Source of the DNA: Folioceros fuciformis
Lineage: Eukaryota
NCBI GenBank assembly: GCA_049999805.1
Contig: JBNGIO010005629.1
Coordinates: 1-38,311 of the forward strand
Reading direction: 5' to 3'
DNA: 38,311 bases
Shown here: piece after piece, positions 534 to 28,018 of the stretch
Numbering within the stretch: the first letter of the stretch is position 1
Layout of the letters: the number at the start of each line of letters is the position of its first letter
Translations under genes and position numbers: made by a program
Notes under the pieces: model-generated
Database searches by the model: none
What the model saw: the letters and a program-made list of their open reading frames with translations, nothing else
What the model was told of the DNA's origin: nothing

Positions 534-2810
534 TCATGGTCGACCCTTACAACTGCAGCAACCAGCTGCAAATCGATGCACACGGTACCCATCCCTTACC
601 ACAATGTCTCTCTTTTCAACCCTTGACATGACCTCGGTGGAACTGTGACAGTCACTGCACATTCGTAAATTCTTCGTTACCACCAAAGGTGTGCCATTGG
701 GAGTGTTCAGCAGACCAAAGGCTAGAGCTAGCTTCTCGGCATGCCCACAAAGCACGTCTTCCTTTTCCCTTTCAGACAATTGCTTCAAAACCAACTTGGT
801 CTGAGGTACGTGGCCCCCTTTCTGCTTCAGACGTGAATTCATGCTCTCTACCTGGAGATCAAGATCATGTCTGTTTTCTCCCACTACGAATCTATGTACC
901 TGCTTCTCCACCTCAATGCCCGCTACTGCAGGTTTCTTGTTCGCTCCCGCTACCATTCTCTGTGTTTCAATCCTGTCCACATCGGCCCACCTACCTGCGT
1001 CGGCATACGCATTGGCCATGAGCACATACGCGGATGCACACTGAGGCTCCAGTCTCACGAGGCTTTCGAAACACCGCGTTGCCCTCTCCACATCACCATG
1101 ACTTTTGCATGCGTTCAGCAAGGACGTCAATGCCACAGCATTGTCTTGGCTTTCACTTGACAATAGCATGTTCTCTGCCTCATCCAAATGGCCTGCACGC
1201 CCAAGGAGATCAATCATACAATTGTAGTGCTCAACATTAGGTTGGATGCCGTGCCGTTCAACCATGGAATCAAAGTGCTTGCGACCCTCATTCACCAGTC
1301 CCCCACGACTGCACGCCCCTAAAAGGCACGTGAAAGTAGTATCATCAGGCTGGATACCAGCACCTATCATCTCCTCGAAACAAGCCAGAGCAGTGTGAGC
1401 TGCATCACAGCTACCACATCCTGCTATCAAGGCATTCCACGTCACCACATTCTTCTTGGCCAAGCTGTCGAAGACACGGCGTGCATCTTCCAGTTCACCA
1501 CACTTGGCATACATGTCCACCAGGCTGGTGCCTACAAGAATGTCACTCAGTTGTCCTCTTTCCACAATCTGTGAGTGCAGCTGCCTGCCCATCTGTAAAG
1601 CACCGCCGCTTGCACAGGCCTTCAGGAGGCAGGCAAAAGTGACACAGTTGCCCACAACAAGGCCCTCCTGCTCCATTTGTCCAAACACAAGAAGCGCCTC
1701 TTGGCCGAGCCCACGATTAGCATACCCAGCTATCAGGGCTGTCCAGGTTACCACATCCTTTTCGGCCAAGCTGTCAAACACCCTGCGTGCGTCTTGGAGT
1801 TCACCACATTTTGCATACATATCCACGAGGCAGTTGCCTACAAAAAGGTTAGGAGAAATGCCACTGTGCAGCAAATCAGAGTGCACCTTTCTGCCAGATT
1901 CCAAGTCCGCAGCAAATGCACAGGCTTGAAGCGCCGCTACAAACACGTGAGCATCCGCCTGCACACCTGAGCTGCGCATCTCATGATAAAGCTGGATGGC
2001 CTCGGTGGCTTTCCCGTGCTTGGCATTCGCGGAGATAATAGAAAACCACATAAAGGCATCCGGTTTTCCCACCCTGGTGAACACATCCATGGCCTCCTGC
2101 AGCCTCCCACCACATGCATACATGCGCAACACATGGTTCCCCAAGTACGTATCTGACTCATACCCAAGCTCCACAATGAGGTCATGAACTCGACGACCAG
2201 CATCAAGATCCTTCTTGGCTGCGCACAGTTTGAGCACACCGTACAAGAGAGACTGCGAAATGAGACAGTCCTTCCGCACGAGACATTCCAACGCTTCAAG
2301 GGCCTCGGCAAGCTTCCCCTGCTGACATAACGTGCTCACGCTCACAGCCGTGACGATGCCCGTTGCCGATCCCGCATGCCTGCCAGGCCCGGAAACACCC
2401 CGGGGCCTGGAATTGGAAGGCGAGGTACTACGACCCACATTCAGATCCAAAGACAAGAGCTGTTCATCCACCCAAGCTGGTTTCAACAAATTGTGCAACC
2501 AAAGGACCTCACCGGAACCCTTTCGCCGGAAGTGAGGCGAACGAGAGCTCTTCTCACCTCGCCTGTTATCCCACCACATGGCAGGGTCAAGAAAAAATTG
2601 TCGCCACAAGAGCTCCTGCTCGTGGCGACCACCATCGCTGGAAAATCTGTTCCCAGCCATCCATTTCGTGGGAACCGGTGGCTGCCTTACCCCGCTGCAC
2701 CTGATTGCAACGTTGTTCGCCAGCGCTTCACAGTCTGAGGTGATGGCATCGGGAGCTCCTCGTGACAGCCTTGAACACCCAACAAAATCCGGTTGCCACG
2801 CTGTGGCCAT
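534..2810 (-). CDS. PLS-class PPR protein with N-terminal PDF-like motif and C-terminal E1-E2-DYW:KP (GRP-type) domain; candidate organellar U-to-C editing factor (short array)
   Basis: Uninterrupted 758-aa ORF. P (VVTWxALI), L (TFACLLKAC) and S (LVDMYAKCG) motifs are followed by P2-L2-S2, E1/E2 and KPAVAGIEV...HAEKLA...CSDCH...CSCKGRP*. Confidence 0.93.
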   Translation of the reverse strand: MATAWQPDFVGCSRLSRGAPDAITSDCEALANNVAIRCSGVRQPPVPTKWMAGNRFSSDGGRHEQELLWRQFFLDPAMWWDNRRGEKSSRSPHFRRKGSGEVLWLHNLLKPAWVDEQLLSLDLNVGRSTSPSNSRPRGVSGPGRHAGSATGIVTAVSVSTLCQQGKLAEALEALECLVRKDCLISQSLLYGVLKLCAAKKDLDAGRRVHDLIVELGYESDTYLGNHVLRMYACGGRLQEAMDVFTRVGKPDAFMWFSIISANAKHGKATEAIQLYHEMRSSGVQADAHVFVAALQACAFAADLESGRKVHSDLLHSGISPNLFVGNCLVDMYAKCGELQDARRVFDSLAEKDVVTWTALIAGYANRGLGQEALLVFGQMEQEGLVVGNCVTFACLLKACASGGALQMGRQLHSQIVERGQLSDILVGTSLVDMYAKCGELEDARRVFDSLAKKNVVTWNALIAGCGSCDAAHTALACFEEMIGAGIQPDDTTFTCLLGACSRGGLVNEGRKHFDSMVERHGIQPNVEHYNCMIDLLGRAGHLDEAENMLLSSESQDNAVALTSLLNACKSHGDVERATRCFESLVRLEPQCASAYVLMANAYADAGRWADVDRIETQRMVAGANKKPAVAGIEVEKQVHRFVVGENRHDLDLQVESMNSRLKQKGGHVPQTKLVLKQLSEREKEDVLCGHAEKLALAFGLLNTPNGTPLVVTKNLRMCSDCHSSTEVMSRVEKRDIVVRDGYRVHRFAAGCCSCKGRP
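2457..2615 (-). other. PDF-like (OSB-type ssDNA-binding) motif, copy in gene 534-2810
   Basis: ELLWRQFFLDPAMWWDNRRGEKSSRSPHFRRKGSGEVLWLHNLLKPAWVDEQL; PDF is changed to PHF. Confidence 0.8.
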
Positions 2811-6300: not shown

Positions 6301-7016
6301 ACAAACACATGCCCATCTGCCTTCACAGATGAACTACGCATGTCATGATATAATTGTATGGCCTCTATCACTTGTCCATGTTGAACATGCGCTGAGATAA
6401 TAGAGGACCACATAAAGGCATCTGGTTGGACAACCATGGTGAACACATCCATCGCTTCCTTCAACCGTGCATGAGAGGCATACATTCGCAGGATGTGGTT
6501 GTTCAGGAACGTGTCCGACTCATACCCCGCTTCCAGTATGAGAGCATGAACACGACGACCCAGAGCCGAATGCTTCTTAACCCGGCAGGTTTTGAGAACA
6601 GTGTAGAAGAGGGACCTGGAAACAGAAAACTCGGCATGTACCAGGGTGCCTAGGGCCCTCACGGCGTCAATAAGCTCACCCTCCTGACACAGTCTGTACA
6701 CGGTTTGACCTGTTATGCCATTTTCGTATCCTGCAGTCCCCGGAGGTTCACTTGCATTCGACAAACTCATTTCCCTCACTCGAAACTCGGAGACATGGGA
6801 CCAACTATTCAAACAGAGGGACTGGTCTGGGACAGACCGTCGCCACAAGAGTTCCCCCTCGCTGGAAGGCCCTTCTCCTTCTTTTCTTCCCCTGGATCGA
6901 TCCTGCTCCGCCATCATGGGACACCTTGCAGTCAGGCTAGGGGCCACGCTTCCTGTCATCATGCAGTTTGGTCTTTGGCCTGCGTGCCAATGAAATCCAA
7001 CTCTCCGGACAAGCAT
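3345..7016 (-). CDS. Long PLS-class PPR protein ending in E1-E2 plus a truncated WW-type PG box (no deaminase core); probable C-to-U editing specificity factor
   Basis: 1223-aa ORF with about 7 internal ~104-aa P-L-S triplets, P2-L2-S2 and E motifs. It ends KQPGQCWWTDMDGLVHSFMVGSQSNSAN* with no HxE or CxxC. The start codon is uncertain (several Met near the N-terminus). Confidence 0.9.
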   Translation of the reverse strand: MLVRRVGFHWHAGQRPNCMMTGSVAPSLTARCPMMAEQDRSRGRKEGEGPSSEGELLWRRSVPDQSLCLNSWSHVSEFRVREMSLSNASEPPGTAGYENGITGQTVYRLCQEGELIDAVRALGTLVHAEFSVSRSLFYTVLKTCRVKKHSALGRRVHALILEAGYESDTFLNNHILRMYASHARLKEAMDVFTMVVQPDAFMWSSIISAHVQHGQVIEAIQLYHDMRSSSVKADGHVFVAALQACARGADLESGQQVHADVLACGVEPHLFVSNCLIDMYAKCGSLEDAQGVFDRLRHKDVVTWNAMIAGYFQHGKNHEALRLYSCMREEGVTPPDSVTFNCALQACGGVGNPALAQGKLLHSQIEEEGLQNELLVGNNLINMYVKCGSLEDARSVFDRRPQKDVVTWTSLIAGYSQHGMGQEALHLYSGMVEEGISAPNSVTFVCLLLACASVGAEAIERGKQIHAQIEKQGLQSDVILCNSLINMYVKCSSLEDAQVVFDGLHQKDVVTWNAMIAGYSQQDMGDEALHLYGAMRDEGILLPNSVTFVCLLQACASLGVIAIEMGKQLHAEIEEQGLQDDVFVANSLINMYMKCGSLQLAQTVFNNLPRKDVVTWTTLVAGYSQQGRGQEALDLYSAIQAEGIEPLNSVAFLCLLKACASVGAMALDIGKQLHAQIVRQGFQGNVSVANSLINMYARCGSLRHAQSIFDQISQKDVVTWTSLIAGYAEEGMAQEALHLYSAMQDEGLVPPDSVTFACLLQACASMGELGLETGKQLHGQIQEQGRQLDIFVANSLIDMYAKCGSLQDAQNVFYGLTQKEVVTWTALISGYSQQGMGEEALRLYTAMQEGGVTTPNSATYVCLLQACASVGFEALEKGKRLHVQIEEQGLQAHVTVGNNLINMYAKCGSLEDARSVFDGLGVKDVVTWNVMIAGYSEQGKATEALELYTAMREEIVTLDVVTFVCLLQACAIVGALHLGRDLHVKIKQLGLENNSSVAISLIDMYAKAGSVDEAQQVFEALPRKHIVAWNALLAGYTRQGDCALVLDLVRRMREHGIHPDGITFLSVLTVCSHAGLVNTGQEYFEAMSRDYSISPSAEHYSCMVDLLGRSGQLDQALALVRAMPVQPQDTLWRTLLSACGKWKSVEVGRHAFEEAVKLNKNDAAAYVLMSNIYASAQMWEQAKEIQARRKEIGSWKQPGQCWWTDMDGLVHSFMVGSQSNSAN

Positions 7017-8247: not shown

Positions 8248-11200
8248 TCACGGTCGACCCTTACAACTGCAACACCCAGCTGCAAATCGATGCACACGGT
8301 ACCCATCCCTTACGACAATGTCTCTCTTTTCAACCCTTGACATAATCTCCGTGGAACTGTGGCAGTCACTGCACATCCGTAGATTCTTCGTTACGACCAG
8401 GGGGGTGCCACTTAGAGTGTTCAAGAGACCAAACGCCAGAGCCAGCTTCTCAGCATGCCCACAAAGCACATCTTCCTTTTCCTTCTCAGACAGTGGCCGC
8501 AACACCAACTGGGTGTGTGGTACATGGCCTCCTTCCTGCTTCAGACGTGCATTTACGGTCTCAACCTTGAACGCAATATGTTCCCTGTTTTCCCCCACAA
8601 CAAACGTATGTACCTGCTCTTGCACCTCAATGCCCGCCACCGCGGGCTTCTTATTAGCTCCTGCTACCTTTCTCTGGGTATCAATCCTGTCTACATCGGC
8701 CCACCTACCTGCGTCTGCATAGGCGTTGGCCATGAGCACATATGCCGATGCACCCTGAGGCTCCAGTCTGACGAGACTTTCAAAACACCGCCTCGCCCTC
8801 TCTATATCCCCGTGTGTCTTGCAGGCATGCAGCAACGAAGTTAAACCCACAACATTGCTTCGGCTCTCACTTGATTCCAGCATGTGCTCTGCCTGATCTA
8901 AATGGCCAGCACGCCCAAGAAGATCAATCATGCAATTGTAATGCTCAACTGTCGGCTTGATGCCATGTTGATCAACCATGGAATCAAAGTGCTTGAGACC
9001 CTCGGTCACCATTCCCGCATGACTGCATGCTACCAGAAGGCAGGTAAAAGTAGCATCATCAGGCGAAATACCAGCGCCTAACATCTCCTCAAAACAAGCT
9101 AGTGCGCTGTGACCTTCGTCACAGTTACCACACCCTGCGATCAGCGCATTCCACGTCACCACATCCTTTGCGGCCAAGCTATCAAAGACGCTGCGTGCAG
9201 ATGGCAGGTCGCCACATTTTGCATACATGTCGACTAGGCAGTTGCCCACAAGTATGCTACCGAGCTGTCCTCTTTCCACAATCTGCGAGTGTAGCTGCCT
9301 ACCCTTCTGCAAGGCACCAACGCTTGCACAGGACTTCAGAAGGCAAGCAAACGTAACATGGTCAGCCAAAACCAGGCCCTCCTGCTCCATTTCTCCATAC
9401 AGAACAAGCGCCTCTTGGCCGAGCCCTTGCTGAGCATATCCAGCGATCAGGGCATTCCATGTGACCACATTTTTGGTCAGCAAGCTGTCGAAAACCAAGC
9501 GTGCATCTTCGAGTTCGCCAAACTTTGCATACATGTCCACCAAGGAAGTGCCCACAAGTAGGTTCCCAAGGTGTCCTCTTTCCACAATCTGAGAGTGCAG
9601 CTGCCTACCCTTCTGTAGAGCATCAGAGCTTGCACAAGCCTTCAGCAGGTAAGTGAAAGTGACATGGTCAGCCACAATCAGTCCCTCCTGCTCCATTTGT
9701 CCATACAAGACAAGCGCCTCCTGACCTGGCCCGTGGTTTGCATACCCACCAATCAGGGCATTCCATGTGACCAAATTTTTTGTGGCCAAACTGTCAAAAA
9801 CCCTGCGTGCATCTTCCAGTTCGCCACATTTTGCATACATGTCCACCAGACAAGTGCCCACAAGTATCTGCTCTACATGGGCTGTTTCAACAATCTGTGA
9901 GTGCAGCTTCCTGCCCCTATGTAAGTCACCAATGCTTGCACAGGCCTTCAGAAGGCAAGCGAAAGTAACCTCGTCAGCCACAACCAGTCCCTCCTGCTCC
10001 ATTTGTTCGTACAAAGCAAGTGCTTGTTGACCAAGCCCGTGATCGGCATAGCCAGCAATAAGGGAATTCCAGGTCACCACATTTTTTGTGGCCAAGCTGT
10101 GAAAAACCTGGCTTGCATCTTCCATTTCTCCAAACTTTGCATACATGTCCACAAGGGAAGTGCCCACAAGTATGTTCTCTAGCTGTCCTCTTTCCACAAT
10201 CTGAGAGTGCAGCTGCCTGCCCTTCTGTAGGGCGCCCGCGCTTGCACAGGCTTTCAGAAGGCAAGCAAAAGTGACATGGTCTGCCACAATCAAGCCCTCC
10301 TGCTCCATTTGTCCGTACAGAACAAGGGCCTCTTGACCGAGCCCGTGATTGGCATACCCACCTATCAGGGCCGTCCATGTCACCAGATTTTTTATCGCCA
10401 TGTTGTCGAAAACCCTGCGTGCATCTTCCAGTTCGCNNNNNNNNNNNNNNNNNNNNNNNNNNNNNNNNNNNNNNNNNNNNNNNNNNNNNNNNNNNNNNNN
10501 NNNNNNNNNNNNNNNNNNNNNNNNNNNNNNNNNNNNCAGTTACCCACCAGTATATTGTTTAGCTGTCCTCGTTCCACAATCTGCGAATGCAGCTCCCTGC
10601 CCCTCTGTAGATCAGCAGTGCTTGCACAGGCTTTCAGAAGGCAAGCAAAAGTAACATGGTTACCCACAACCAGGCCCTCCCACTCCATTTGTCTATACAA
10701 AGTAAGTGCTCGCTGGCTGAGCCCATGGATAGCATACCCATCAATCAGCGCCGTCCATGTCACCACATCCTTTGTGGTCAAGCTGTCAAAAACCGTGCGT
10801 GCAGCGTCCAGATCGCCACATTTTGCGTACATGTCCACGAGGCAGTTGCCGACAAATAAGTTAGGGGGAATGCCACTCCGCAGAACATCACTATGCACAT
10901 TTCTGCCAGATTGCAAGTCCGCAGCAAACGCACAGGCTTGAAGGGCAGCTACGAAGACGTGACCATTCGCCTTTACACCCGAGGTACGCATCTTGTGGTA
11001 CAGTTGGATGGCCTCTTCCGGCTTCCCATGTTTAGCATGTGCAGAGATAATAGAAAACCACATGAAACAATCTGGCTTACCCACCCGGTTGAACACATCC
11101 ATGGCCTCCTGTAGCCTACCTCCACGTGCATACATGCGCAAGATATGGTTCCCCAAGTATGTGTTTGACTCGTACCCGAGTTTGACAGTGAGGTCGTGAA

Positions 11201-11852
11201 CTCTTTGCCCCAGAACCAGATCCTTCGTAGCCGCACACTGTTTGAGCACAGTGTAGAAAAGAGACTGAGAAATGGGACTGCCAGTCTCTACACGAGACTC
11301 CAGGGCTCGTACGGCGTCAGCAAGCTTTCCCTGCTGACATAACGTGCTCACAGTGACAGCCGTGATCACGCCCATTTCCGACCCTGCCCTCCTGCGAGCC
11401 TCGGGAATATCCAGAGAGCTCGACTTGGAAGGCGAGGCACCATGGCCCATCCGAATATCCAAATAAACGAGCTGCTCATCCACCCAAGGTGGCTTGAACA
11501 GGCTGTTCAACCAGAGGACCTCGCCAGTCCCCGTATGCCAGAAGTCAGGCGAACGGAGACTCTGCTTACTTCTCCTGTTATCCAACCACATGGCAGGGTC
11601 CAGAAAAAATTGTCGCCACAGGAGGTCCTGCTTCTGCTGTTCCTCCTGGCGACCAATGTCAGTGGAAAATCCTTCCGTAACCATGCATTCTCTCGGGACC
11701 ACTGCGTGCCACACACTGCCGCTCCTGAAGGCTCGGTTGTTTTTCATAGCTGGACTCGCCAAGGTGAGGTGCGCGGAAGTTCCTGGTACAAGCCCTGCAG
11801 AGCAATCAACGTGTTGGGTCCACAACGAATCGGGTTGCCATTGTAGAGCCAT
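8248..11852 (-). CDS. PDF-like + PLS-PPR + DYW:KP (GRP) protein; one gene split by the N gap at 10437-10536
   Basis: ORF 10392-11852 stops at ILVGNC before the gap and the sequence resumes at GELEDARR of an S motif, continuing into ORF 8248-10401. It ends HAEKLA...CSCKGRP*. There are at least 5 internal triplets. Confidence 0.9.
11469..11627 (-). other. PDF-like motif, copy in gene 8248-11852
   Basis: DLLWRQFFLDPAMWLDNRRSKQSLRSPDFWHTGTGEVLWLNSLFKPPWVDEQL; PDFxHxxTGE and PPWV are retained. Confidence 0.85.
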
Positions 11853-14654: not shown

Positions 14655-15112
14655 ATGTGTGTTTTCTTCTCTCTTCTCAGGAAATGATCANNNNNNNNNN
14701 NNNNNNNNNNNNNNNNNNNNNNNNNNNNNNNNNNNNNNNNNNNNNNNNNNNNNNNNNNNNNNNNNNNNNNNNNNNNNNNNNNNNNNNNNNGCTATTCTTT
14801 TGTTGCACTTGTAAAGAAGATAGAGATGACAATTGCTCATCTACAAGAATCACATCAAGCTACCGTGCAAATTTAAGCTCTTGGATTTGTTGTGCCAATT
14901 CCTACAAATGCTCACAAACAATGCGATGGAGCTTTGGGGTTGAGACTTGGACTAATCATTCTCCTACTGTACTTATTTATATTCATTAGGATAGGAATGT
15001 TTGGTGGAACGATTGATCTACATTTTACATCGGATAGGAAACTAGCTACTATATCACCTTGATGTAGAGTGAGGGGATGTATTCACGGATGATGATGAAG
15101 ATTAGTTGTGCA
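14655..15112 (+). pseudogene. Degenerate inverted copy of the 13048-13407 exon (contains the N gap 14691-14790)
   Basis: Same acceptor context (cttctctcttctcag|GAAATG). It translates as IEMTIAHLQESHQATVQI*ALGFVVP...ECLVERLIYILH...DVE*GDVFTDDDED*, with stops and frameshifts relative to the other copy. Confidence 0.7.
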
Positions 15113-16788: not shown

Positions 16789-19700
16789 TCACGGTCGACT
16801 GTTACAGCTGCAGCGACCACCTGCAAATCGATGGACACGGTACCCGTCCCTTACCACAATGCCCCTTTTCTCCACCCTTGACATTATCTCCGTAGAACTG
16901 TGGCAGTCACTGCACATCCGTAGGTTCTTCGTTACTACCAGCGGTGTGCCGCTCGGAGTGTTCAAGAGACCAAACGCCAGAGCCAGCTTCTCAGCATGCC
17001 CACATAGCACATCTTCCTTTTCCTTCTCGTTTAGTGGCTTCATGACCAACTTTGTGTGTGGTGCATGGCCGCTTTCCTGCTTCATACGTGCGTTCATGCT
17101 GTGTACCTTGCGGGTTATCTCATCTCTGTGGTTTTCGCCCACCACAAATGTATGCACTTTCTTCTTCACCTCAATGCCCGCCACCGCAGGTTTCTTATAA
17201 GCTCCTGCTACCATTCTCTGCGTTTCAATCCTGTCTACATCTGCCCACCTACCTGCATCTGCGTAGGCGTTGGCCATGAGCACATAAGCCGACGCACTCT
17301 GAGGCTCCAGCCTGACGAGACTTTCAAAACACCGTCTCGCCCTCTCTACATCCCCGTGACTTTTGCAGGCATTCAGCAAAGACGTCAACCCGACAACATT
17401 GCTTTGGCTTTCAGATGATAACAGCATGTTCTCTGCTTCATCTAAATGGCCAGCACGCCCAAGAAGATCAATCATGCAATTGTAGTGCTCAATACAAGGC
17501 GTGATACCATGCTGGAACAGCATGGAATTATAGTACTGGCAACCCTCCTTCACCAGTCCTTCGTGACTGCACGCCGCTAACAGGCAAGTGAAAGTGGCGT
17601 CGTTAGGCTGAATACCGGCAACTAACATCTCCTCGAAACAAGATATTGCATTGTGACCTTCATCACAAGTTCCACACCCACCTATCAGGGCATTCCATGT
17701 CACAACATCTTTTGTGGCAAGACTGTTGAAAACCTGGCGTGCAGCTTCCAACTCACCACACTTTGCATACATGTCCACCAGGCAATTGCCCAACACTATG
17801 TTATCCTGCTGTCCTCTTTCCACAATCTGTGAATGCAACTCCCTGCCCTTCTGCAGGGCACCTGCGTTTCCACAGGCTTTCAGAAGGCATGCGAAAGTAA
17901 CCTCGTCCGCCACAATCAGGCCCTCCTCCTCCATTTGTCTATACAGGACAATTGCCTTTTCGCCCAGCCCGTAATCCGCGTACCCAGCAATCAGGGAATT
18001 CCATGTCACCACATCCTTGGCGGTCAGGCTGACAAAAACCTTGTGTGCATCTTCCAGTGCGCCACACTTTGCATACATGTCCACTAGGCAGTTGCCCACC
18101 AGTATGTTGTCTAGCTGCCCCCTTTCCACAATCCGTGAGTGCAGCTGCCTTCCCGTCTGTAAGGCACCAGCACCAGCACTTGCACATGCCTTCAGTAGGC
18201 AAGCAAAAGTTACATGGTTACCCACAATCAGGCCATCTTGCTCCATTTGTTCATAAAGAACAAGGGCCTCTTGGTAGAGCCCACGACTTGCATACCCAGC
18301 TATCAGGGCCGTCCATGTAACCACGTTTTTAGTGGCCAAGCTCTGAAAAACCCGCAGTGCATCTTTGAATTCGCCACATTTTGCATACATGTCCACCAGA
18401 CAAGTGCTCACAAGTATGTTGTCTGCCTCCCCTCGTTCTACTAGCTGTGAGTGCAGCTGCATGCCCCGTTGTAAGGCACCGGCGCTTGCACAGGCCTTCA
18501 AAAGGCAGACAAAAGTCACATGGCTACCCACAATCAGGCCCTCCTGCTGCATTTGTCCGTAAAGAACAAGGGCCGTTTGGCCATTTCCTTTATCTGCGTA
18601 GCCAGCTATGAGGGCATTCCATGTCACAACATCTTTGGTGGCCAAGCTATCAAAAACCCTGTGTGCCTCTTCTAGTTTGCCACATTTTGCATACATGTCA
18701 ACAAGGCAGTTGCCGACAAACAGGTTAGGAGGAATGCCACTGTGCAATACATCACAGTGCACTTTCCTGCCAGATTCCACGTCCGAAGCAAATGCACAAG
18801 CTTGAAGTGTAGCTACGAAGACGTGAGCATCCGCCTTCACACCCGAGCTACGCATCTCATGGTACAGTTGTATGGCCTGCTTAGGCTTCCCATGCTTGGC
18901 ATGTGCGGAAATTATCGAAAACCACATGAATGCGTCTGGTTCACCCACCCTGGCGAACACATCCATGGCGTCTTCTAATCTACCAGCACAGGCATACATG
19001 CGTAAGATATGGTTCGCCAAGTACGGGCTTGAATCATACCCGAGTTTCACAGCGAGCTCATGAACTCGTCGTCCCATAACCAGGTCCTTCTTAGTTGCGC
19101 ACAGTTTCAGCACGATGTAAAAGACAGAATGAGGGATGAGACGCTTTGTTCGAGCCAGAGATTCTAAGGCTTCAACGGCCTCAGTAAGCTTGCCCTGCTG
19201 ACATGAAGTTCTCACGGTTACGGCTGTCAGCACGCCCATGTTCAGTACTTCATACCTGCCAGGCCCAGGCTTGTTCGGAGATCTCCACTTGCAAGGAGAG
19301 TCGCCATGATCAACATGCATATCCATAGAAATAAGCTGGTCATCCACCCAACCTGACTTACACATGCTGTTCGACCAAAGGACCTCCCCGGACCCATTAC
19401 GGCAGAGGTCAGGCCCACGGGAGCTCTCCTTACCTATCCTATTATCCCAACACATGACCGGGTCCAGAAAGTTTTGCCCTAACAAGAGATCTGGTTCATG
19501 GTGCTGCTCCTGCCGACCAAAACCGCAGGAAAATCCTTCTACACCCGTCCAGTTGGAAGGAACCTCACATAGCTGCACCTGAAGGCTTGGCCATTTGCCA
19601 CCGAATGACGAAGTAAGATGAAGTGAGCGAGTGCTCCTGCTGGTTTCCTTGTACACCCGCCGATTTTTTGGGTCCAAAACAGATCCGGCTGCCATACAAT

Positions 19701-19893
19701 TACCATCCTTCAAGGACCGCTTTCGGAAGATGTGAGCACAACAAACTATCCTATTACAGTAAGGTAGATCATGGCACGCTGAATCGTAAGCAGGAGTGTT
19801 TGACCATTTGCAGATGGGACTCGCGAGAACCCGGAAAGGCTGCTTCAGATCACGAGAAGCACCGAATGGTAAAGCAATCGACATCAGAGACAT
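16789..19893 (-). CDS. PLS-PPR DYW:KP protein (terminal SRP) with a degenerate PDF-like motif and a distinct, longer N-terminal leader
   Basis: 1034-aa ORF with 3 internal triplets, ending KPAVAGIEV...HAEKLA...CSDCH...CSCNSRP*. Confidence 0.92.
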   Translation of the reverse strand: MSLMSIALPFGASRDLKQPFRVLASPICKWSNTPAYDSACHDLPYCNRIVCCAHIFRKRSLKDGNCMAAGSVLDPKNRRVYKETSRSTRSLHLTSSFGGKWPSLQVQLCEVPSNWTGVEGFSCGFGRQEQHHEPDLLLGQNFLDPVMCWDNRIGKESSRGPDLCRNGSGEVLWSNSMCKSGWVDDQLISMDMHVDHGDSPCKWRSPNKPGPGRYEVLNMGVLTAVTVRTSCQQGKLTEAVEALESLARTKRLIPHSVFYIVLKLCATKKDLVMGRRVHELAVKLGYDSSPYLANHILRMYACAGRLEDAMDVFARVGEPDAFMWFSIISAHAKHGKPKQAIQLYHEMRSSGVKADAHVFVATLQACAFASDVESGRKVHCDVLHSGIPPNLFVGNCLVDMYAKCGKLEEAHRVFDSLATKDVVTWNALIAGYADKGNGQTALVLYGQMQQEGLIVGSHVTFVCLLKACASAGALQRGMQLHSQLVERGEADNILVSTCLVDMYAKCGEFKDALRVFQSLATKNVVTWTALIAGYASRGLYQEALVLYEQMEQDGLIVGNHVTFACLLKACASAGAGALQTGRQLHSRIVERGQLDNILVGNCLVDMYAKCGALEDAHKVFVSLTAKDVVTWNSLIAGYADYGLGEKAIVLYRQMEEEGLIVADEVTFACLLKACGNAGALQKGRELHSQIVERGQQDNIVLGNCLVDMYAKCGELEAARQVFNSLATKDVVTWNALIGGCGTCDEGHNAISCFEEMLVAGIQPNDATFTCLLAACSHEGLVKEGCQYYNSMLFQHGITPCIEHYNCMIDLLGRAGHLDEAENMLLSSESQSNVVGLTSLLNACKSHGDVERARRCFESLVRLEPQSASAYVLMANAYADAGRWADVDRIETQRMVAGAYKKPAVAGIEVKKKVHTFVVGENHRDEITRKVHSMNARMKQESGHAPHTKLVMKPLNEKEKEDVLCGHAEKLALAFGLLNTPSGTPLVVTKNLRMCSDCHSSTEIMSRVEKRGIVVRDGYRVHRFAGGRCSCNSRP
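19333..19491 (-). other. Degenerate PDF-like motif in gene 16789-19893
   Basis: DLLLGQNFLDPVMCWDNRIGKESSRGPDLCRNGSGEVLWSNSMCKSGWVDDQL; several aromatic residues are lost. Confidence 0.7.
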
Positions 19894-20866: not shown

Positions 20867-23800
20867 TCACGGTCGACCCTTGCAACTGCAACAACCAGCA
20901 GCGAATCGATGGACACGGTAACCATCTCTTACAACAATGCCTCGCCTTTCCACTCTGGACATGATCTCTGTGGAAGTGTGGCAGTCACTGCACATGCGTA
21001 GATTCTTCGTCACCATCAAAGGTGTGCCGTTCGGAGTGTTCAAGAGACCAAACGCCAGGGCAAGCTTCTCAGCATGACCGCAAAGGGCATCCTCCTTTTC
21101 CTTCTCAGAGAATTGCTTCAGCACCAATTTCGTGTCGGGCAAATGACCCTCTTGTTGCCTCAGTCGCGCAGTCATACTCTCTGCCTTCAGCGCAATCTCG
21201 TCATCTCTGTTTTCTCCGACCACAAACGTATGTACCTGCTTCTCAACCTCAATGCCCGCCACTGCAGGCTTCTTGTTAGCTCCTGCTACCATTCTCTGTG
21301 TTTCAATCCTGTCTACATCGGCCCACCTACCCGCATCTGCATATGCATTGGCCATGAGCAAATATGAGGATGCACACAGAGGCTCCAGTCTAACGAGACT
21401 TTCGAAACAGCGCACCGCCCTGTCTATATCCCCGTGACTCTTGCAGGCGTGCAGCAAAGACGTTAACCCCACGACATTGCCTTGAGTTCCACATGATACT
21501 AGCATGTCCTCTGCCTCATCTAGATGGCCTGCACGACCAAGAAGATCTATCATGCAATTGTAATGCTCAACAGTAGGGCTGATGCCCTGGTGTTCAACCA
21601 TGGAGTCAAAGTGCTTGCGACCCTCTTTCACCAGTCCTTCCTGACTGCAAGCAACTAACAGGCAAGTAAGAGTAGATTCATCAGGTTGAACACCAGAGGC
21701 TAGCATCTCCTCAAAACAAGCTAGTGCGTTGTAACCTTCACCAGACGTACCACAACCAGCTATCAGGGCATTCCATGTCACCACATTTTTCTGTGTCAAG
21801 TTGTCAAAAACCCTGCGTGCAGTATCTAATTCTCCACACTTTGCATACATGTCCACCAGGCAGGTGCCAACAACTACGTTATCCAGTTGTCCTCTTTCCA
21901 CAATCTGTGAATGAAGCTGCATGCCCGTCTGTAATGCACCGGCAATTGCACAGGCCTTCAGAAGGCAAACGAAAATAACATCGTCAGCGACAGTCAGGCC
22001 CTCCTGCTTCATTCGTTCATACAGAACAAGTGCTTCTTGGCCAAGCCCATGATTTGCATATCCAGCTATGAGGGCTGTCCATGTCACCACATTTTTCATA
22101 GACAAGCTGTCAAAAACCTGGCGTGCATCTTCCAGTTCGCCACATTTAACATACATGTCCACCAAGCAGTTGCCAAGAAGCATGTTATCCAGATGTCCTC
22201 TTTCAACGATTTGTGAATGCAGCTGCTTCCCCTGATGCAAGGCACCAACGCTTGTACAGGCTTTAAGGAGGCAAGCAAAAGTGACATGGTTAGCCATTAG
22301 CAAGCCTTCCTGCTCCATCTGTGCGTATACAACAAGCGCCTCTTGGCCAAGCCCATGATTAGCATACCCGCCTATAAGGGCTGTCCATGTCACGACGTCC
22401 TTTGCAGTCAAGCTGTTAAAAGCTCTCCGTGCTTCTTCTAGTTCGCCACATTTAGCATACATGTCCACCAGGCACGTTCCCACCAGTGCGTTATCTAGCT
22501 GTCCTCGTTCCACAATCTGTAAGTGCAGCTGCTTGCCCTTCTGTAAGGCACCAGCGCTTGCACAGGCCTTGAAAAGGCAAGCAAACGTGACATGGTTACC
22601 CACAATCAGGCCCCTCTGCTCCATTTCATCATGCAACACAAGTGCCTCTTCACAGAGCCCATGATTAACATACCCAGCGATCAGGGTCGTCCATGTTACC
22701 ACATCCTTTGTGATCAAGCTGTCAAAAACATTGCATGCATCTGCCAGTTCACCACATTTCACATACATGTCCACAAGGCAGTTACCCACTAGTAGTTTAT
22801 CTAAATGTCCTCTTTCCGCAATCAGTGAGTGCAGTTGCCTGCCCTGCTGCAAGGCACCAGTACTTGCACAGGCCTTCAGAAGGCAAGCAAATGTCACATG
22901 GTCAGCCACAATAAGGCCCTCTAGCTCCATCTGTCCGTACAGAACAAGCGCCTCTTGACCAAGCCCATGATTCACATACCCAGCTATCAGGGCCGTCCAC
23001 GTCACCACATCCTTGGAGGCCAAGCTGTCAAAAACCCTGCGTGCATCTTCCAGTTCGCCACACTTTGCATACATGTCCACCAAGCCGTTGCCAACAAACA
23101 AGTCAGGAGGAATGCCACTATGCAACACATCACAATGCACTTTTTTGCCAGATACCAAGTCCGTAGCATATGCACAAGCTTGAAGGGCTGCGACAAAGAC
23201 CTGAGCATTCGCCTTCTCACCTGAGATTTGCATCTCATGGTACAATTGAATGGCCTCCTTAGGTTTCCCATGTTTAGCATGAGCGGAGATAATGGAAAGC
23301 CAGATAATGGCATCTGGCTTTCTCACTCTGGTGAACACATCCATAGCCTCCTCAAGCTTACCTACGCATGCATACAACCGCAAAATATGGTTACCCAAGT
23401 ACGCATTTGACTCGTACCCAAGCTTCACGACGATATCATGTATTCGTCGTCCCACAACCAGATCCTTCTTAGCAACACACAATTTCAGCACAGTATGCAA
23501 CAGAGATTGAGATACAGGCGAATTTGCCGCCAGAAATTCTAGGGCCTCGACGGCTTCTGTCAGCTTTCCCTGCTGACACAAACAGCAGACGGTTACATCA
23601 GTTACGACGTCCATTTCAGCTCCTGAACGCCTGCCAGGCTCAGACTTGTCCGGAGACGCACCGTGACCCTTCTGCATATCCAACGAATCCAGCTGCTCAT
23701 CCACCCAAGCTGGCTTGACCAAGTTGTTTAACCAGAGGACTTCTCCAGACCCCTTACGCCGGAAGTCGGGCGATCGGGAGCTCTTCTTATCCCGTCTGTT

Positions 23801-24159
23801 ATCCCACCACATACCAGGGTCGAGAAAAAATTGTCGCCACAAGAGCTCCTGCTGCTGGCGACCACCATCGCTGGAAGTACCTTCCCCAGCAGTAAATTTC
23901 CTTGGGAGAGCTGGGTTGCCTANNNNNNNNNNNNNNNNNNNNNNNNNNNNNNNNNNNNNNNNNNNNNNNNNNNNNNNNNNNNNNNNNNNNNNNNNNNNNN
24001 NNNNNNNNNNNNNNNNNNNNNNCTGCACCTGCAGTCTAGGTTGTCTACCAGCGGTCGGCTCCCTGACATGATCTGAGTGGGAGCTGTTGGCAGCTTGCCC
24101 TTAGACCCACCAATTTGTTGAATCCATACGGAATTCGGTTGCCATATCACAGTGGCCAT
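20867..24159 (-). CDS. PDF-like + PLS-PPR + DYW:KP (GRP) protein; true start probably ATG 24159, across the N gap at 23923-24022
   Basis: MATVIWQPNSVWIQQIGG at 24159 matches the paralog starts MATVWPPDSLWTQQIGG and MALQWQPDSLWTQ. It has 4 internal triplets and ends CSCKGRP*. Confidence 0.9.
23690..23848 (-). other. Best-preserved PDF-like motif, in gene 20867-24159
   Basis: ELLWRQFFLDPGMWWDNRRDKKSSRSPDFRRKGSGEVLWLNNLVKPAWVDEQL. Confidence 0.85.
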
Positions 24160-24502: not shown

Positions 24503-24826
24503 GAACATCAACATCGGAGAAAAATGCAAGCATTGCAAGTTTGACTTGTTGATGCTTCTTGCATCCTCCCTGATGGCACAGTCGAGTGGGAGTTGCAGGT
24601 GACACTCCCCATCCGGGCGGTAGGGAGCATGGAATTATGGTACGACGCATCAGGGCATATTTGTTTCCCTTCATCAGGCTGAACGATTATCTGTTTGACA
24701 GTAACACTGAGAGTGGCAAACATCGAAATGGGCAGGTCAGGCTGGGTTAGAGATCTTGGTGGTGCCCGTTGTTAGGATGGTCTACGGGTAGTGTGAGTCT
24801 CGATTTCGCAGAGCGGTGCCTGAAAG

Positions 24827-27800
24827 ATGGCGACAGTCTGGCCACCGGATTCATTGTGGACCCAACAAATTGGTGGATGTGTGCGGATTTCGGAAGGAAC
24901 TGTTGCTCACCCCACCTCTGACAAGGAAGCCTCCAGGTACAGCTCTGTAAAGAACCTAGCGCTTCCAAGAAACTGGTTGGCCGTGGAACCATTTCCCAGT
25001 AATGGAGGTCGACAGGAGCAGGAGGTATTGTGGCGCCTATTTTCTCTGGACCCTGACATGCGGAGGGATAACAGGCGAGGTAAGAAGAGCTTCCGTTCAC
25101 CTGGGTTCCGGCGTAAGGGGTCCGGCAAGGTTCTCTGGTTAAACAGCTTGTTCAAGACAGCTTGGTTGGATGAGCAGCTTGTTTGGTTGGATCTGCAGAT
25201 TGCTCATGGGGCGTCTTCTTGCAAGTCGAGGCAATCGGACAAGCCCGGGCATGGCAGACGTGCAGGATCGAGAAGGGGAGAAGTAACGGCTGCGAGAGTG
25301 AGCACGTTTTGTCAGCAGGGGATGCTCACCGAGGCCGTTGGAGCCCTGGAATCTCTGGCGCAGTTGGACAGTCCTATTTCTCAGGCTCTCTTTTACTCTG
25401 TGCTCAAATTGTGTGCAGCTAAGAAGGATGTGGTTGTGGGGCGACGAGTTCATGATCTTACCGTCAAACTTGGGTACGAGTCGAATGCATACTTGGGGAA
25501 CCATATCGTGCGAATGTATGCATGTGTAGGTAGGCTACAGGACGCCATGGATGCGTTCAGCAGGGTGGGCAGACCAGATACCTTCATGTGGTTCTCCATA
25601 ATCTCTGCATATGCGAAGCATGGGAGGCCTGACGAGGCCATACAACTGTATCGTAAGATGCGTAGCTCAGGCGTGAAGGCAGATGCTCACGTCTTTGTTG
25701 CAGCCCTCCAAGCTTGTGCGCTTGCTTCGGACTTGGAATCAGGCAGAGAGGTACATGGTGATGTGTTGCTCAGTGGCATTCCTCCCAACTTGTTTGTCAG
25801 CAACTGCCTGGTGGACATGTACGCAAAATGTGGCAAGCTAAGCGAGGCACGTGAGGTTTTTGACAGCTTGCCCAGGAAGGATGTGGTCACATGGACGGCC
25901 CTGATAGCTGGGTATGCAAATCATGGGCTGGGCCGAAAGGCGCTTATTCTGTATGGGCACATGGAGCAAGATGGGCTGATTGTGGGTAACCATATAACTT
26001 ATACTTGCCTTCTTAAGGCCTGCGCAACTGCTGGTGCCTTAGAGCAGGGCAGGCAGCTGCACTCACAGATTGTGGAAAGAGGACAGCTGAATACCGTACT
26101 GGGCAACTGCTTGGTGGACATGTACGCAAAATGTGGTGAATTGGAAGATGCACGGAGGGTGTTTGACAGCTTAGCCACAAAAAATGTGGTGACATGGACT
26201 GTCCTCATAGCTGGGTATGTGAATCATGGGCTCAGTCAAGAGGGGCTTGATCTGTATGGACTAATGGAGCAGGAGGGCCTGATTGTGGCTGACGAGGTTA
26301 CTTGTGCTTGCCTTTTGAAGGCCTGTGCAAGTGCTGGTGCCATACAAAAGGGCAGGCAGCTGCACTCACAGATTGTGGAAAGAGGACAGCTGGATGATAT
26401 ACATGTGGGCACTTCCCTGGTGGACATGTATGCAAAGTGTGGTGAACTGGAAGATGCACGCCAGGTTTTTGATAGCTTGGCCACGAAAAATGTGGTGACA
26501 TGGACGGCCCTGATTGCAGGGTATGCACAACAAGGTCTTGGCAAGGAGGCGCTTGCTCTGTATGGACAAATGGAGCAGGAGGGCCTGATCATGGCTGATG
26601 AGATCACCATCGCTTGCCTTCTCAAGGCCTGTGCAAGTGCTGGTGCCTTGCAGCAGGGCAGGCAGCTGCACTTACAGATTGTGGATAGAGGAGAGCTAGA
26701 TAACTTAGTGTTGGGCAATTGCCTGGTGGACATGTACGCAAAATGCGGCCAACTGGAAGTTGCAAGTGAGGTTTTTGACGGCTTGTCCTCAAAGAATGTG
26801 GTGACATGGACGGCCCTTATAGCTGGGTATGCTAATCACGGGCTTGGTCAAGAGGCTCTTGTTCTGTTCAGACGAATGGAGCAGGAGGGCCTGCTTGTGG
26901 CTGATGGGGTTACGTTTGCTTGCCTACTGAAGGCATGTGCAAGCGTCGGTGCCTTACAGAAGGGCAAGCAGCTGCACTCGCAGATTGTGGACAGAGGACA
27001 GCTGGATAACATACAAGTGGGCACTTGCCTAGTGGACATGTATGCAAAATGTGGCGAACTGGAAGAGGCACGCCGGGTTTTTGACAGCTTGCCCACAAAA
27101 GACGTGGTGGCATGGAATGCCCTCATAGCTGGGTGTGGTACTTGTGATGAAGGTCACAACGCACTAGCTTGTTTTGAGGAGATGTTAGTGGCTGGTGTTA
27201 AGCCTGATGATGCTACTTTTACTTGCCTTCTAGTAGCGTGCAGTCATGAGGGGCTGGTGAGTGAGGGTCTCAAGCTCTTTGATTCCATGATGAAAAAGCA
27301 TGGTATCAAACCTACTGTTGAGCATTACAATTGCATGGTTGATCTTCTTGGGCGTGCCGGCCATTTAGATGAGGCACAGAACATGTTGTTATCATGTGAC
27401 TGCCAAAGCAATGTTGTGGGGTTGACATCTTTGCTGAATGCATGTAAAATTCACGGAGATATAGAGAGGGCGACTTGGTGTTTTGAATGTCTCGTTAGAC
27501 TAGAGCCTCAGAGGGCAGCCGCTTATGTGCTCCTGGCGAATACCTATGCAGATGCAGGTAGGTGGACGGATGTAGAGAGGATAGAAAGACAGAGAATGGT
27601 AGCAGGAGCTAACAAGAAACCTGCAGTGGCGGGCATTGAGGTGAATGAGCGGGTACATACATTTGTGGTTGGGGAATGCGGAGATGATGTTGCATTCAGG
27701 GTAGAGAGCATGAATGCACGTTTGAAGCAGGAAGGGAGCCATGTGTCACATACAAAGTTGGTGTTAAAGCCGTTGTCTGAGAAAGAAAAAGAAGATGTGC

Positions 27801-28018
27801 TTTGTGGGCATGCTGAGAAGCTAGCCCTGGCATTTGGTCTCTTCAACACTCCGAGTGGCACACCCCTCATGGTGACTAAGAATCTGCGCATGTGCAGTGA
27901 CTGCCACAGTTCCACAGAGATTATGTCAAGGATTGAGAAAAGAGACATCGTTGTGAGGGATGGCTACCGTGTGCATCGATTCACAGCTGGTTGTTGCAGT
28001 TGTAAAGGTCGAGCGTGA
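24827..28018 (+). CDS. PLS-PPR DYW:KP protein (terminal GRA) with a partly degenerate PDF-like motif; head-to-head with the preceding paralog
   Basis: 1063-aa ORF with 4 internal triplets, ending KPAVAGIEV...HAEKLA...CSCKGRA*. Confidence 0.93.
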   Translation: MATVWPPDSLWTQQIGGCVRISEGTVAHPTSDKEASRYSSVKNLALPRNWLAVEPFPSNGGRQEQEVLWRLFSLDPDMRRDNRRGKKSFRSPGFRRKGSGKVLWLNSLFKTAWLDEQLVWLDLQIAHGASSCKSRQSDKPGHGRRAGSRRGEVTAARVSTFCQQGMLTEAVGALESLAQLDSPISQALFYSVLKLCAAKKDVVVGRRVHDLTVKLGYESNAYLGNHIVRMYACVGRLQDAMDAFSRVGRPDTFMWFSIISAYAKHGRPDEAIQLYRKMRSSGVKADAHVFVAALQACALASDLESGREVHGDVLLSGIPPNLFVSNCLVDMYAKCGKLSEAREVFDSLPRKDVVTWTALIAGYANHGLGRKALILYGHMEQDGLIVGNHITYTCLLKACATAGALEQGRQLHSQIVERGQLNTVLGNCLVDMYAKCGELEDARRVFDSLATKNVVTWTVLIAGYVNHGLSQEGLDLYGLMEQEGLIVADEVTCACLLKACASAGAIQKGRQLHSQIVERGQLDDIHVGTSLVDMYAKCGELEDARQVFDSLATKNVVTWTALIAGYAQQGLGKEALALYGQMEQEGLIMADEITIACLLKACASAGALQQGRQLHLQIVDRGELDNLVLGNCLVDMYAKCGQLEVASEVFDGLSSKNVVTWTALIAGYANHGLGQEALVLFRRMEQEGLLVADGVTFACLLKACASVGALQKGKQLHSQIVDRGQLDNIQVGTCLVDMYAKCGELEEARRVFDSLPTKDVVAWNALIAGCGTCDEGHNALACFEEMLVAGVKPDDATFTCLLVACSHEGLVSEGLKLFDSMMKKHGIKPTVEHYNCMVDLLGRAGHLDEAQNMLLSCDCQSNVVGLTSLLNACKIHGDIERATWCFECLVRLEPQRAAAYVLLANTYADAGRWTDVERIERQRMVAGANKKPAVAGIEVNERVHTFVVGECGDDVAFRVESMNARLKQEGSHVSHTKLVLKPLSEKEKEDVLCGHAEKLALAFGLFNTPSGTPLMVTKNLRMCSDCHSSTEIMSRIEKRDIVVRDGYRVHRFTAGCCSCKGRA
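25022..25180 (+). other. Partly degenerate PDF-like motif in gene 24827-28018
   Basis: EVLWRLFSLDPDMRRDNRRGKKSFRSPGFRRKGSGKVLWLNSLFKTAWLDEQL; WW is changed to RR and PDF to PGF. Confidence 0.7.

Follow-up and report, generated by a model that had tools for sequence, protein, structure and literature searches.

An OSB-type PDF motif ahead of the PPR array in a tandem cluster of candidate DYW:KP-type editing factors from Folioceros fuciformis

Described systems and the architecture of the locus

Two reviews (PMC6963530, PMC4166229) describe OSB proteins as having an SSB-like OB fold followed, on its C-terminal side, by one to five copies of the PDF motif. For AtOSB1, the PDF motif alone is reported to be sufficient for ssDNA binding, and AtOSB2 is reviewed as a tetramer (PMC6963530); OSB1 and OSB2 are both said to prefer ssDNA over dsDNA or RNA (PMC4166229).

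A second group of described proteins, the PLS-class PPR-DYW:KP factors (PMC9478123, PMC11845758), have a PPR array, an E motif, a DYW_deaminase domain in which KP replaces PG, the HAE...CSDCH pattern, and a C-terminal end other than DYW. The DYW:KP and DYW:PG types differ in the PG box, in the active-site region and in the C-terminal triplet, and the U-to-C editing activity given in the same source was shown only for synthetic consensus DYW:KP proteins (PMC9478123). As presented in these papers, both the DYW:KP descriptions and the synthetic designs start at the PLS array, with no mention of an N-terminal domain, whereas the genes considered here have a PDF motif at that position.

PPR proteins with accessory domains are also comparable, as they too combine sequence-specific recognition by a PPR array with a general RNA- or DNA-binding module; examples are the N-terminal RRM of maize PPR4 and PpPPR_3/76, and SMR, NYN and LAGLIDADG domains (PMC9459714). 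However, these are P-class proteins whose domains are annotated in Pfam, and PDF is missing from the list given in that paper. Finally, the MORF/RIP and ORRM proteins of seed-plant editosomes, non-catalytic helpers that make PLS-PPR factors act better on their targets, may offer a functional analogy, although they differ in fold and are for the most part polypeptides of their own, and any likeness to PDF would be one of function.

The stretch of DNA analyzed here in full, 38,311 nucleotides long and termed the window, contains five PPR genes with the following coordinates. The E values given for the motifs are those of the OSB-only HMM described in the next section.

534..2810, (-) strand: gene g1, 758 aa
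2457..2615, (-) strand: PDF motif of g1, residues 66-118 of P0003, E 3.6e-19
8248..11852, (-) strand: gene g2, architecture as g1, with an assembly gap inside
11469..11627, (-) strand: PDF motif of g2, in-frame 53-aa translation, E 1.3e-19
16789..19893, (-) strand: gene g3, architecture as g1, longest ORF starting at 19893
19333..19491, (-) strand: PDF motif of g3, partly decayed, E 1.1e-09, HMM positions 11-55 only
20867..23922, (-) strand: gene g4, architecture as g1, 5' end lost in or beyond the gap 23923-24022
23690..23848, (-) strand: PDF motif of g4, in-frame 53-aa translation, E 2.7e-21, 14/14 family columns
24827..28018, (+) strand: gene g5, architecture as g1, 1063 aa, ending in GRA
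25022..25180, (+) strand: PDF motif of g5, partly decayed, E 6.6e-12

The architecture of g1 consists of a leader, the PDF motif, a linker, the PLS-PPR array, the E motif and the DYW:KP-type domain. In all five genes, whose ORFs are intronless, a leader of ~65 aa precedes the block and the first PPR repeat follows it, with the usual ~65-aa leader of g3 obtained from an internal Met at 19695. A 100-N gap at 10437-10536 splits g2, and a second gap (23923-24022) cuts the g4 leader 75 bases from the block. All five 53-aa blocks translate in frame as originally predicted, and their alignment has 21 invariant columns and a mean column identity of 82%. The genes are tandem paralogues (dS 0.45-1.06), and for this reason the window counts as a single inherited fusion and not as five separate events.

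Regarding domain content, Pfam finds PPR families (E down to 5e-100), E_motif (1e-11 to 1e-14) and DYW_deaminase (1e-31 to 7e-34) in the window ORFs, which have the composition of PLS-class PPR-DYW proteins: a PPR array, an E motif, and a DYW deaminase with the HxE and CxxCH ligands, present here as HAEK and as CSDCH/CTDCH. The exact signature of the DYW:KP subtype is KPA.A together with a GRP end. The C-termini of the five ORFs run KKPAVAGIEV ... HAEK ... CSDCH ... GRP (GRA in g5), and the alignment with P0147, a PG-type protein from Sphagnum, sets them apart as DYW:KP: KKPAVAGIEV versus KKEPGRTWIEV, HAEK versus HSEK, and GRP/GRA versus DYW. The window genes are candidate U-to-C editing factors of this type. 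Pfam finds no SSB domain in any window protein, the families being PPR, E-motif and DYW only, and no Pfam model covers the PDF block. Judged from this content, the window proteins carry an OSB motif but are not OSB proteins: they differ from these in lacking an SSB domain and in having a single PDF copy, which precedes the PPR array. Pfam, alignment and AlphaFold2 together bear out the proposed three-part protein, made of a PDF module, a PLS-PPR array and a DYW:KP-type domain.

Homology, fold and selection of the block

The block and the OSB motif share a length of ~50 aa and the pattern LW..FF.DP..WWDNR..K....PDF..K....LWL....P.WV..QL; ssDNA binding has been measured for the OSB PDF only. In a search of 1.84 billion representatives with a profile made from the five blocks, 409 proteins passed E<=0.001, 74 of them also passing E<=1e-10. 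The matches include "protein OSB1, mitochondrial-like [Populus nigra]" (E 6.4e-18), two proteins with a Pfam SSB domain ahead of the motif, P0035 (4.4e-13) and P0065 (5.6e-12), and four more, P0033, P0047, P0009 and P0015, with an SSB match below the Pfam cut-off. In the reverse direction, an HMM built solely from OSB sequences (8 PDF copies from 5 SSB-bearing proteins) and run on the six-frame window found exactly the five blocks, at E 2.7e-21 to 1.1e-09, with the next best at 0.34; the two directions are not fully independent, because the OSB copies had themselves been found with the window's profile. The homology to the OSB PDF motif put forward in the original prediction is sustained by strong profile matches in both directions (Populus OSB1 and the OSB-only HMM), and the match to OSB is significant throughout. 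These matches mark the block as a genuine homologue of the OSB PDF motif. The 60-sequence alignment A2 has 14 columns with little or no variation; of these, g2 and g4 keep all 14, g1 keeps 12, and g3 and g5 keep 11 each.

Other searches were less productive. The best hits of the profile among PDB sequences were chlorophyll a-b binding proteins (E 0.39), taken as chance. In the index-limited word-index searches, the five-block profile returned two matches among longer proteins, both of them PPR proteins, and residues 62-122 of P0003 returned five candidates, none of them scored.

AlphaFold2 gave a pLDDT of 87.2 for the g4 block with 10 flanking residues per side. For g1 in context, residues 1-57 and 126-149 fall below 50, the block lies at 78-91 and the PPR array exceeds 90, with a folded module spanning residues 60-127 and a linker of ~25 residues, predicted to be flexible, between this module and the array. 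The block is thus confidently predicted to fold independently, as helix, beta-hairpin and helix, between disordered segments. A Foldseek comparison of the block model with the PDB had a best E of 3.4, and hence no solved relative of this fold appears to be present there. The predicted complex of two block copies scored 0.00, which decides neither for nor against self-association.

Selection was estimated as dN/dS by NG86 on gene pairs among the five paralogues. The block has values of 0.05-0.48 (at dS 0.45-1.06), the 24 codons before it 0.34-1.21, the linker 0.22-1.48 and the PPR array 0.15-0.25; hence the block is comparable to the array and below its flanks, a difference that is significant when only g1-g4 and g2-g5, which are independent pairs, are counted (Fisher p = 0.004). 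As had been claimed, the block is more conserved than the flanking linkers (0.05-0.48 versus 0.22-1.48), and its dN/dS across paralogues is well below 1. The block is under purifying selection. Values are 0.05-0.24 among g1, g2 and g4 (at dS 0.6-1.0) and highest in pairs with g3 (0.21-0.48).

Decay is seen in some members. The g3 block has the substitutions W4L, F29L and P46S, and that of g5 has WW replaced by RR and PDF by PGF. In P0008, the nearest KP-type relative outside the window, DP has become DT, WW has become CW and PDF has become RDF. In addition, a neighbouring PPR-E gene (3345-7016), without a DYW domain, retains a trace of the motif:

6801..6902, (-) strand: decayed remnant of the second half of the PDF motif

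The remnant aligns with the g1 N-terminus by BLASTP at E 1e-05 (DRSRGRK..GELLWR..VPDQ..SLCLN against DNRRGEK..GEVLWL..VDEQ..SLDLN) and was missed by the OSB-only HMM. Decay in g3, g5, the PPR-E neighbour and P0008 indicates that at least some factors can do without the motif.

A further feature lies in the g5 block:

25080..25198, (+) strand: 119-base GT..AG stretch in the g5 PDF block, skipped by one contig of run X1

Run X1 is presumed, as a guess, to be RNA; its depth and most of its joints are swamped by the paralogous PPR repeats and were left out. The contig, 507 letters long, lies with 0 mismatches on 24735-25077 and 25197-25360, and the skipped stretch has the borders AG|GTAAGA ... CTGCAG|A. 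It is either an intron or a deletion allele. The g5 transcript may lose most of the PDF block; the skip would either break the frame from the ATG at 24827 or leave a PDF-less protein from the ATG at 25002.

Occurrence of the fusion among land plants

PPR proteins account for 14/150 of the profile matches listed, and in these the first PDF copy starts within the first 93 residues; the named PDF-PPR sources are Ceratopteris, Adiantum, Selaginella, Diphasiastrum, Sphagnum and transcript ORFs of Pteridium. Among the matches listed with a length of 680-2000 aa, PPR proteins make up 111 of the 120 PDF-bearing proteins, their records coming from liverworts, mosses, lycophytes and ferns. The first PDF copy lies within 200 residues in 110 of these 111 listed proteins, with up to 3 copies per protein. 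A DYW domain is absent from 62 of the 111, and of the 49 listed that have one, 46 end in DYW.

These counts do not uphold two parts of the original prediction. The fusion had been tied to the DYW:KP type, and among the matches listed it sits mostly on PPR proteins that end in DYW (HSE, PG-type) or lack the domain. The use of PDF as a marker of U-to-C editors was rejected, as most of the listed fusions are PG-type or without DYW. Likewise, the view that PLS arrays have only a targeting peptide ahead of them fails for the non-seed-plant records among these matches. The link between PDF-PPR and DYW:KP is incidental, and the fusion seems to be old and widespread in non-seed land plants; the tandem cluster would have inherited it.

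In a tree of 213 PDF copies, those of PPR proteins group together more than shuffled labels do, with 10 label changes where 1000 shuffles average 21.2 and never fall below 17, and the largest all-PPR clade takes in 11 of the 22 (support 0.79); with ~50 columns and related rows, this tree cannot settle one origin versus several.

Proposed role and significance

We consider it probable that the PDF module is an N-terminal accessory helper, binding nucleic acid, of a PLS-class PPR editing factor. The block would most likely be a non-specific binder of single strands that adds affinity or nucleoid anchoring. Without sequence specificity of its own, it would bind RNA on the 5' side of the PPR footprint, or else ssDNA where nucleoids are being transcribed, and in doing so would raise the local concentration or the affinity of the editing factor. 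A role as an RNA clamp is not the obvious default, since OSB1 and OSB2 prefer ssDNA over RNA. The PPR array would then provide specificity and the DYW domain catalysis, with PDF as a helper outside the catalytic core. Synthetic DYW:KP editors, designed from PLS repeats plus C-terminal domains and preceded by a thioredoxin and a His tag, edit in bacteria and in human cells (PMC9478123), and moss PPR56 without its N-terminus still edits in E. coli (PMC10482289); the block is not needed for catalysis.

A broader form of this proposal, possible but doubtful, is that the PLS editing factors of land plants originally had PDF built into them as a helper, which anchored them to the ssDNA of transcribing organelle nucleoids for co-transcriptional editing. 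Lineages from liverworts to ferns would have retained the module and increased its number, and seed plants would have lost it, with separate MORF/RIP proteins taking over there. If so, synthetic C-to-U and U-to-C editors might gain from having PDF restored.

It is unlikely that PDF instead serves protein-protein docking or oligomerization, recruiting the editor to OSB-, Whirly- or RecA-nucleoid complexes or to other editing factors, with no binding of nucleic acid. A compact, independently folded module on a flexible tether, as predicted, suits docking as well as it suits nucleic-acid binding, and both the AtOSB2 tetramer (PMC6963530) and the presence of up to three PDF copies per PPR protein among the matches listed are consistent with it. 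However, that review reports no biochemical activity of the motif other than ssDNA binding, and the composition of the 53-residue block, with 8 aromatic residues and 10 Lys or Arg, fits stacking and charge contacts with nucleic acid.

We regard as quite improbable that the block is functionless in the mature protein, either as a relic drifting to loss or as part of a cleaved presequence. The decay described above, the possible splice that takes out most of the g5 block, the predicted disorder of the leader before it, and heterologous editing without N-terminal regions (PMC9478123, PMC10482289) all point that way. They are countered by the low dN/dS among g1, g2 and g4, by the confident AlphaFold2 fold, and by the retention of OSB-defining residues in PPR proteins from liverworts, mosses, lycophytes and ferns; moreover, in OSB proteins the motif functions in a C-terminal position, and so PDF is not a targeting signal in itself. 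That PDF steers DYW:KP to ssDNA, to modify DNA bases instead of or besides RNA, is very improbable, its sole support being the preference of OSB PDF for ssDNA (PMC4166229), here joined to a base-modifying enzyme, whereas many ordinary PPR proteins that end in DYW carry the fusion, as do PPR proteins with no DYW domain (62 of the 111 listed), PPR arrays are known RNA readers, and the present data give no sign of DNA editing.

As read from the sequence, two well-studied parts, the OSB ssDNA-binding motif and the PLS-PPR editing factors, are joined in an architecture that is unannotated. The part of the literature that was searched yielded no description of the PDF-PPR fusion, and the main text of a 2026 kingdom-wide survey of domain fusions in editing factors has 0 mentions of OSB or PDF (PMC13386178). 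Domain surveys miss this architecture because PDF has no Pfam model. To our knowledge, laboratory constructs of editing factors usually begin at the first PPR repeat, with all preceding sequence removed, and any contribution of PDF has thereby been excluded by design.

The fusion reaches well beyond this locus: among the matches listed, more than 100 PPR proteins of non-seed land plants have it. If PDF binds nucleic acid or nucleoids in these proteins, it would physically link organelle DNA or the transcription machinery to RNA editing. It would also give a hint of how early-diverging plants edit without MORF proteins, and could provide a simple add-on for engineered RNA editors.

A tandem cluster of PPR genes

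Intronless PPR genes of the PLS class form a tandem cluster in the window. In five of them (g1-g5), Pfam recognizes PPR repeats together with an E motif and a DYW_deaminase domain. The features are as follows:

534-2810, minus strand: g1; PPR, E motif, DYW_deaminase
3345-7016, minus strand: sixth PPR gene of the cluster, a PPR-E gene without a DYW domain
8248-11852, minus strand: g2; PPR, E motif, DYW_deaminase, with a 100-N run inside
16789-19893, minus strand: g3; PPR, E motif, DYW_deaminase
20867 to about 23922, minus strand: g4; PPR, E motif, DYW_deaminase, with a 100-N run in the leader
24827-28018, plus strand: g5; PPR, E motif, DYW_deaminase
10437-10536, 14691-14790, and 23923-24022: scaffold gaps of exactly 100 N each
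30905-33090, plus strand: two adjoining ORFs with MULE transposase, ZSWIM RNaseH-like, and SWIM zinc-finger matches (Pfam)
35723-37586, plus strand: cytochrome P450 gene, split over two ORFs that match positions 1-261 and 325-437 of the Pfam p450 profile

Two of the gaps cut PPR genes: one falls inside g2 and obscures how many repeats it has, and the other falls in the g4 leader, 75 bases from the block discussed below, and hides where that gene starts. The transposase-like ORF pair and the P450 gene downstream identify the window as nuclear plant DNA. The ORF pair is a Mutator-like or FAR1-like element beside the cluster.

The C-termini of g1-g5 read KKPAVAGIEV ... HAEK ... CSDCH ... GRP (GRA in g5), against KKEPGRTWIEV ... 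HSEK ... CGDCH ... DYW for a PG-type protein in the same alignment, and on this comparison the five are of the DYW:KP type. The three regions in which the two subtypes differ are named in PMC9478123.

A constrained and folded OSB-type module

Between the leader and the first PPR repeat, each of g1-g5 carries a block that the original prediction likened to the PDF motif of OSB proteins; all five ranges assigned to it translate in frame, as first written, into 53 amino acids. On the minus strand they are 2457-2615 (g1), 11469-11627 (g2), 19333-19491 (g3), and 23690-23848 (g4), and on the plus strand 25022-25180 (g5). Because Pfam has no model matching the block, homology was tested in both directions. 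The forward search, a five-block profile against 1.84 billion representative proteins, gave 409 matches at E<=0.001, of which 74 reached E<=1e-10 and 8 reached E<=1e-30; one match, with E 6.4e-18, is “protein OSB1, mitochondrial-like [Populus nigra]”. The 150 matches listed among the 409 are mostly proteins of 150-500 aa that carry one to several PDF copies, commonly toward the C-terminus. Ten matches were scanned with Pfam: SSB scored above the curated cut-off in two (P0035, 4.4e-13; P0065, 5.6e-12) and below it in four (P0033, P0047, P0009, P0015), while the remaining four comprised two without any family, one with a kinesin model, and one PPR protein.

For the reverse test, an HMM of 8 PDF copies from 5 SSB-bearing proteins was run against the window translated in all six frames, and it recovered g4 (E 2.7e-21), g2 (1.3e-19), g1 (3.6e-19), g5 (6.6e-12), and g3 (1.1e-09), the next best E being 0.34. 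The seeds were first found with the window profile, so that neither test is fully independent of the other, but they are named or domain-verified OSB-type proteins. When 60 sequences, mostly profile matches, are aligned, their consensus (LW..FF..P..WWDNR..K.NPR.PDFKHK.TGEALW......P.WV..QL..LD) agrees with the OSB PDF pattern given in the original prediction. Judged by these significant profile matches in both directions, the block is a homologue of the OSB PDF motif, and this homology is secure.

The five-block alignment has 21 invariant columns. Among the paralogues (dS 0.45-1.06), dN/dS (NG86) is 0.05-0.48 in the block and 0.15-0.25 in the PPR array (first ~230 aligned codons), compared with 0.34-1.21 in the 24 codons ahead of the block and 0.22-1.48 in the linker after it. 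The block is under tighter constraint than its flanks (Fisher p = 0.004, counts pooled over two independent pairs, g1-g4 and g2-g5). Since the copies are paralogues of one another, the window counts as a single inherited fusion.

AlphaFold2, given the 60-sequence alignment, models the g4 block with 10 flanking residues per side as two helices (5-19 and 58-70) with a short hairpin (24-26, 39-41) between them, at mean pLDDT 87.2 and pTM 0.73. Foldseek found no relative of this model in the PDB (best E 3.4), and a PDB sequence search with the block profile returned chance-level matches alone. When the first 330 residues of g1 are modeled, pLDDT is 78-91 in the block and >90 in the PPR array from residue 155, and falls below 50 at residues 1-57 and 126-149. 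In these models the module is a folded bead, with a disordered leader on one side and a flexible linker on the other, which agrees with the high dN/dS of both flanks.

The motif is not intact everywhere. Three of 14 family-conserved columns are lost in each of g3 and g5, the highest block dN/dS is that of g3, and in P0008, a database protein, the motif is eroded at DP, WW, DNR, and PDF. The PPR-E gene retains the second half only (6801-6902, minus strand; BLASTP E 1e-05), a remnant undetected by the reverse HMM in the six-frame window; this decayed half suggests that the ancestor of the entire cluster had a PDF motif and that such a motif can disappear. In g5, a 507-letter contig from sequencing run X1, its kind guessed to be RNA, lies with 0 mismatches on 24735-25077 and 25197-25360, and its joint (25077/79 to 25197/99) has GT..AG borders. 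It skips:

25080-25198, plus strand: 119 bases within the g5 PDF block, AG/GTAAGA ... CTGCAG/A

Both splice-like sites are present in g5 alone among g1-g5. The segment is either an intron, whose removal would delete the greater part of the motif and cause a frameshift, or, if X1 is DNA, a deletion allele. With splicing, the ORF from ATG 24827 would stop at codon 158, and ATG 25002 would be in frame into the PPR array, giving a protein without the motif. Under either reading, g5 may have no intact PDF motif in its product.

Possible contributions of the module

Together, these results show editing factors carrying at their N-terminal end a PDF motif that is selected, independently folded, and tethered. 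The module would be expected to bind single strands non-specifically. Since the N-terminal repeats of a PPR array face the 5' side of the bound RNA, the module could contact RNA upstream of the PPR-recognized element. Given the ssDNA preference reported for OSB proteins, it could instead retain the factor at transcribing nucleoids through their single-stranded DNA. The review PMC6963530 describes the AtOSB1 PDF motif alone as enough for ssDNA binding and a nanomolar ssDNA affinity for AtOSB2, and the review PMC4166229 a preference of OSB1 and OSB2 for ssDNA over dsDNA or RNA.

Catalysis does not require the module: synthetic KP editors made of PLS repeats and C-terminal domains are reported active in bacteria and human cells (PMC9478123), and moss PPR56 edits in E. 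coli when no more than 14 residues precede its first PPR in the clone (PMC10482289). The habit of starting clones near the first PPR has thus left the module's contribution out of editing assays. Rivals to single-strand binding are that the folded module is a protein-docking element, or that it is a relic or a cleaved presequence; targeting of DNA is the least likely.

Distribution and novelty of the PDF-PPR fusion

PPR repeats occur in 14 of the 150 listed forward matches (phmmer), all 14 having one to three PDF copies, the first starting at or before residue 93. Named among them are Ceratopteris richardii, Adiantum capillus-veneris, Selaginella, Diphasiastrum complanatum, and Sphagnum compactum; two transcript-derived ORFs of Pteridium aquilinum are also among the PDF-PPR matches. 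P0008 is a KP-type relative, and Sphagnum P0147 is plainly PG-type.

A second search, with a broader alignment against the 7999 candidates of 680-2000 aa sharing most words, gave 121 proteins at E<=0.001. Among the 120 listed, 111 have PPR repeats, with one PDF copy in 84, two in 20, and three in 7; these proportions are of the matches listed, biased by length and word sharing, and are not proteome proportions. The first copy lies within the first 200 residues in 110 of the 111, the sole exception being a Kingdonia model with an additional SSB domain, probably two merged genes. By name, Diphasiastrum complanatum accounts for ~90 rows (some of them isoforms from a single locus), Ceratodon purpureus for 6, Adiantum for 5, Calypogeia fissa for 3, and Sphagnum fallax for 1. 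The fusion is therefore present in records of liverworts, mosses, lycophytes, and ferns as well as in Folioceros. Many Diphasiastrum rows have the motif start at residues 135-150, which points to a large lineage-specific expansion of PDF-PPR genes with a long leader of conserved length.

The original prediction described the fusion on DYW:KP factors. Of 49 listed second-search proteins with a near-complete DYW domain, the terminal triplet is DYW in 46 and GRP in none, and HSE[KR] is present in 45; among the proteins listed, most carriers of the fusion are PPR proteins of the ordinary C-to-U type or without a DYW domain, and we reject it as a feature of U-to-C editors as such.

Some PDF contexts are unusual. 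P0020, a gene model of the dinoflagellate Cladocopium sp. (534 aa), contains 6-7 PDF-like repeats and matches the window profile at E 6.2e-25, and P0021 (719 aa) resembles it; one review confines PDF motifs to green plants, and the P0020 repeats could reflect transfer, contamination, or a family wider than known. Among angiosperms, Kingdonia uniflora P0009 (1160 aa) has 10-13 PDF copies, Coptis chinensis P0062 (1526 aa) has copies ahead of a kinesin motor, and Kingdonia P0202 (999 aa) combines SSB, PDF, and PPR; these three may be merged gene models.

The literature searched gave no description of a PDF-PPR fusion and no paper combining PPR, DYW, and “PDF motif”, though an earlier mention may exist. 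A 2026 OSB family study retained a protein only if it had an OB-fold as well as a PDF domain (PMC13393729), OSB/PDF has 0 occurrences in the main text of a 2026 kingdom-wide survey of editing-factor domain fusions (PMC13386178), and a Physcomitrium review lists accessory PPR domains without PDF (PMC9459714). PDF-PPR proteins are already public, labeled hypothetical or simply PPR; the architecture is a new arrangement of known parts. The PDF block on g1-g5 is confirmed, and the three-part architecture of the original prediction stands; the PDF-PPR fusion is much more widely spread than the first reading assumed and is not KP-specific.
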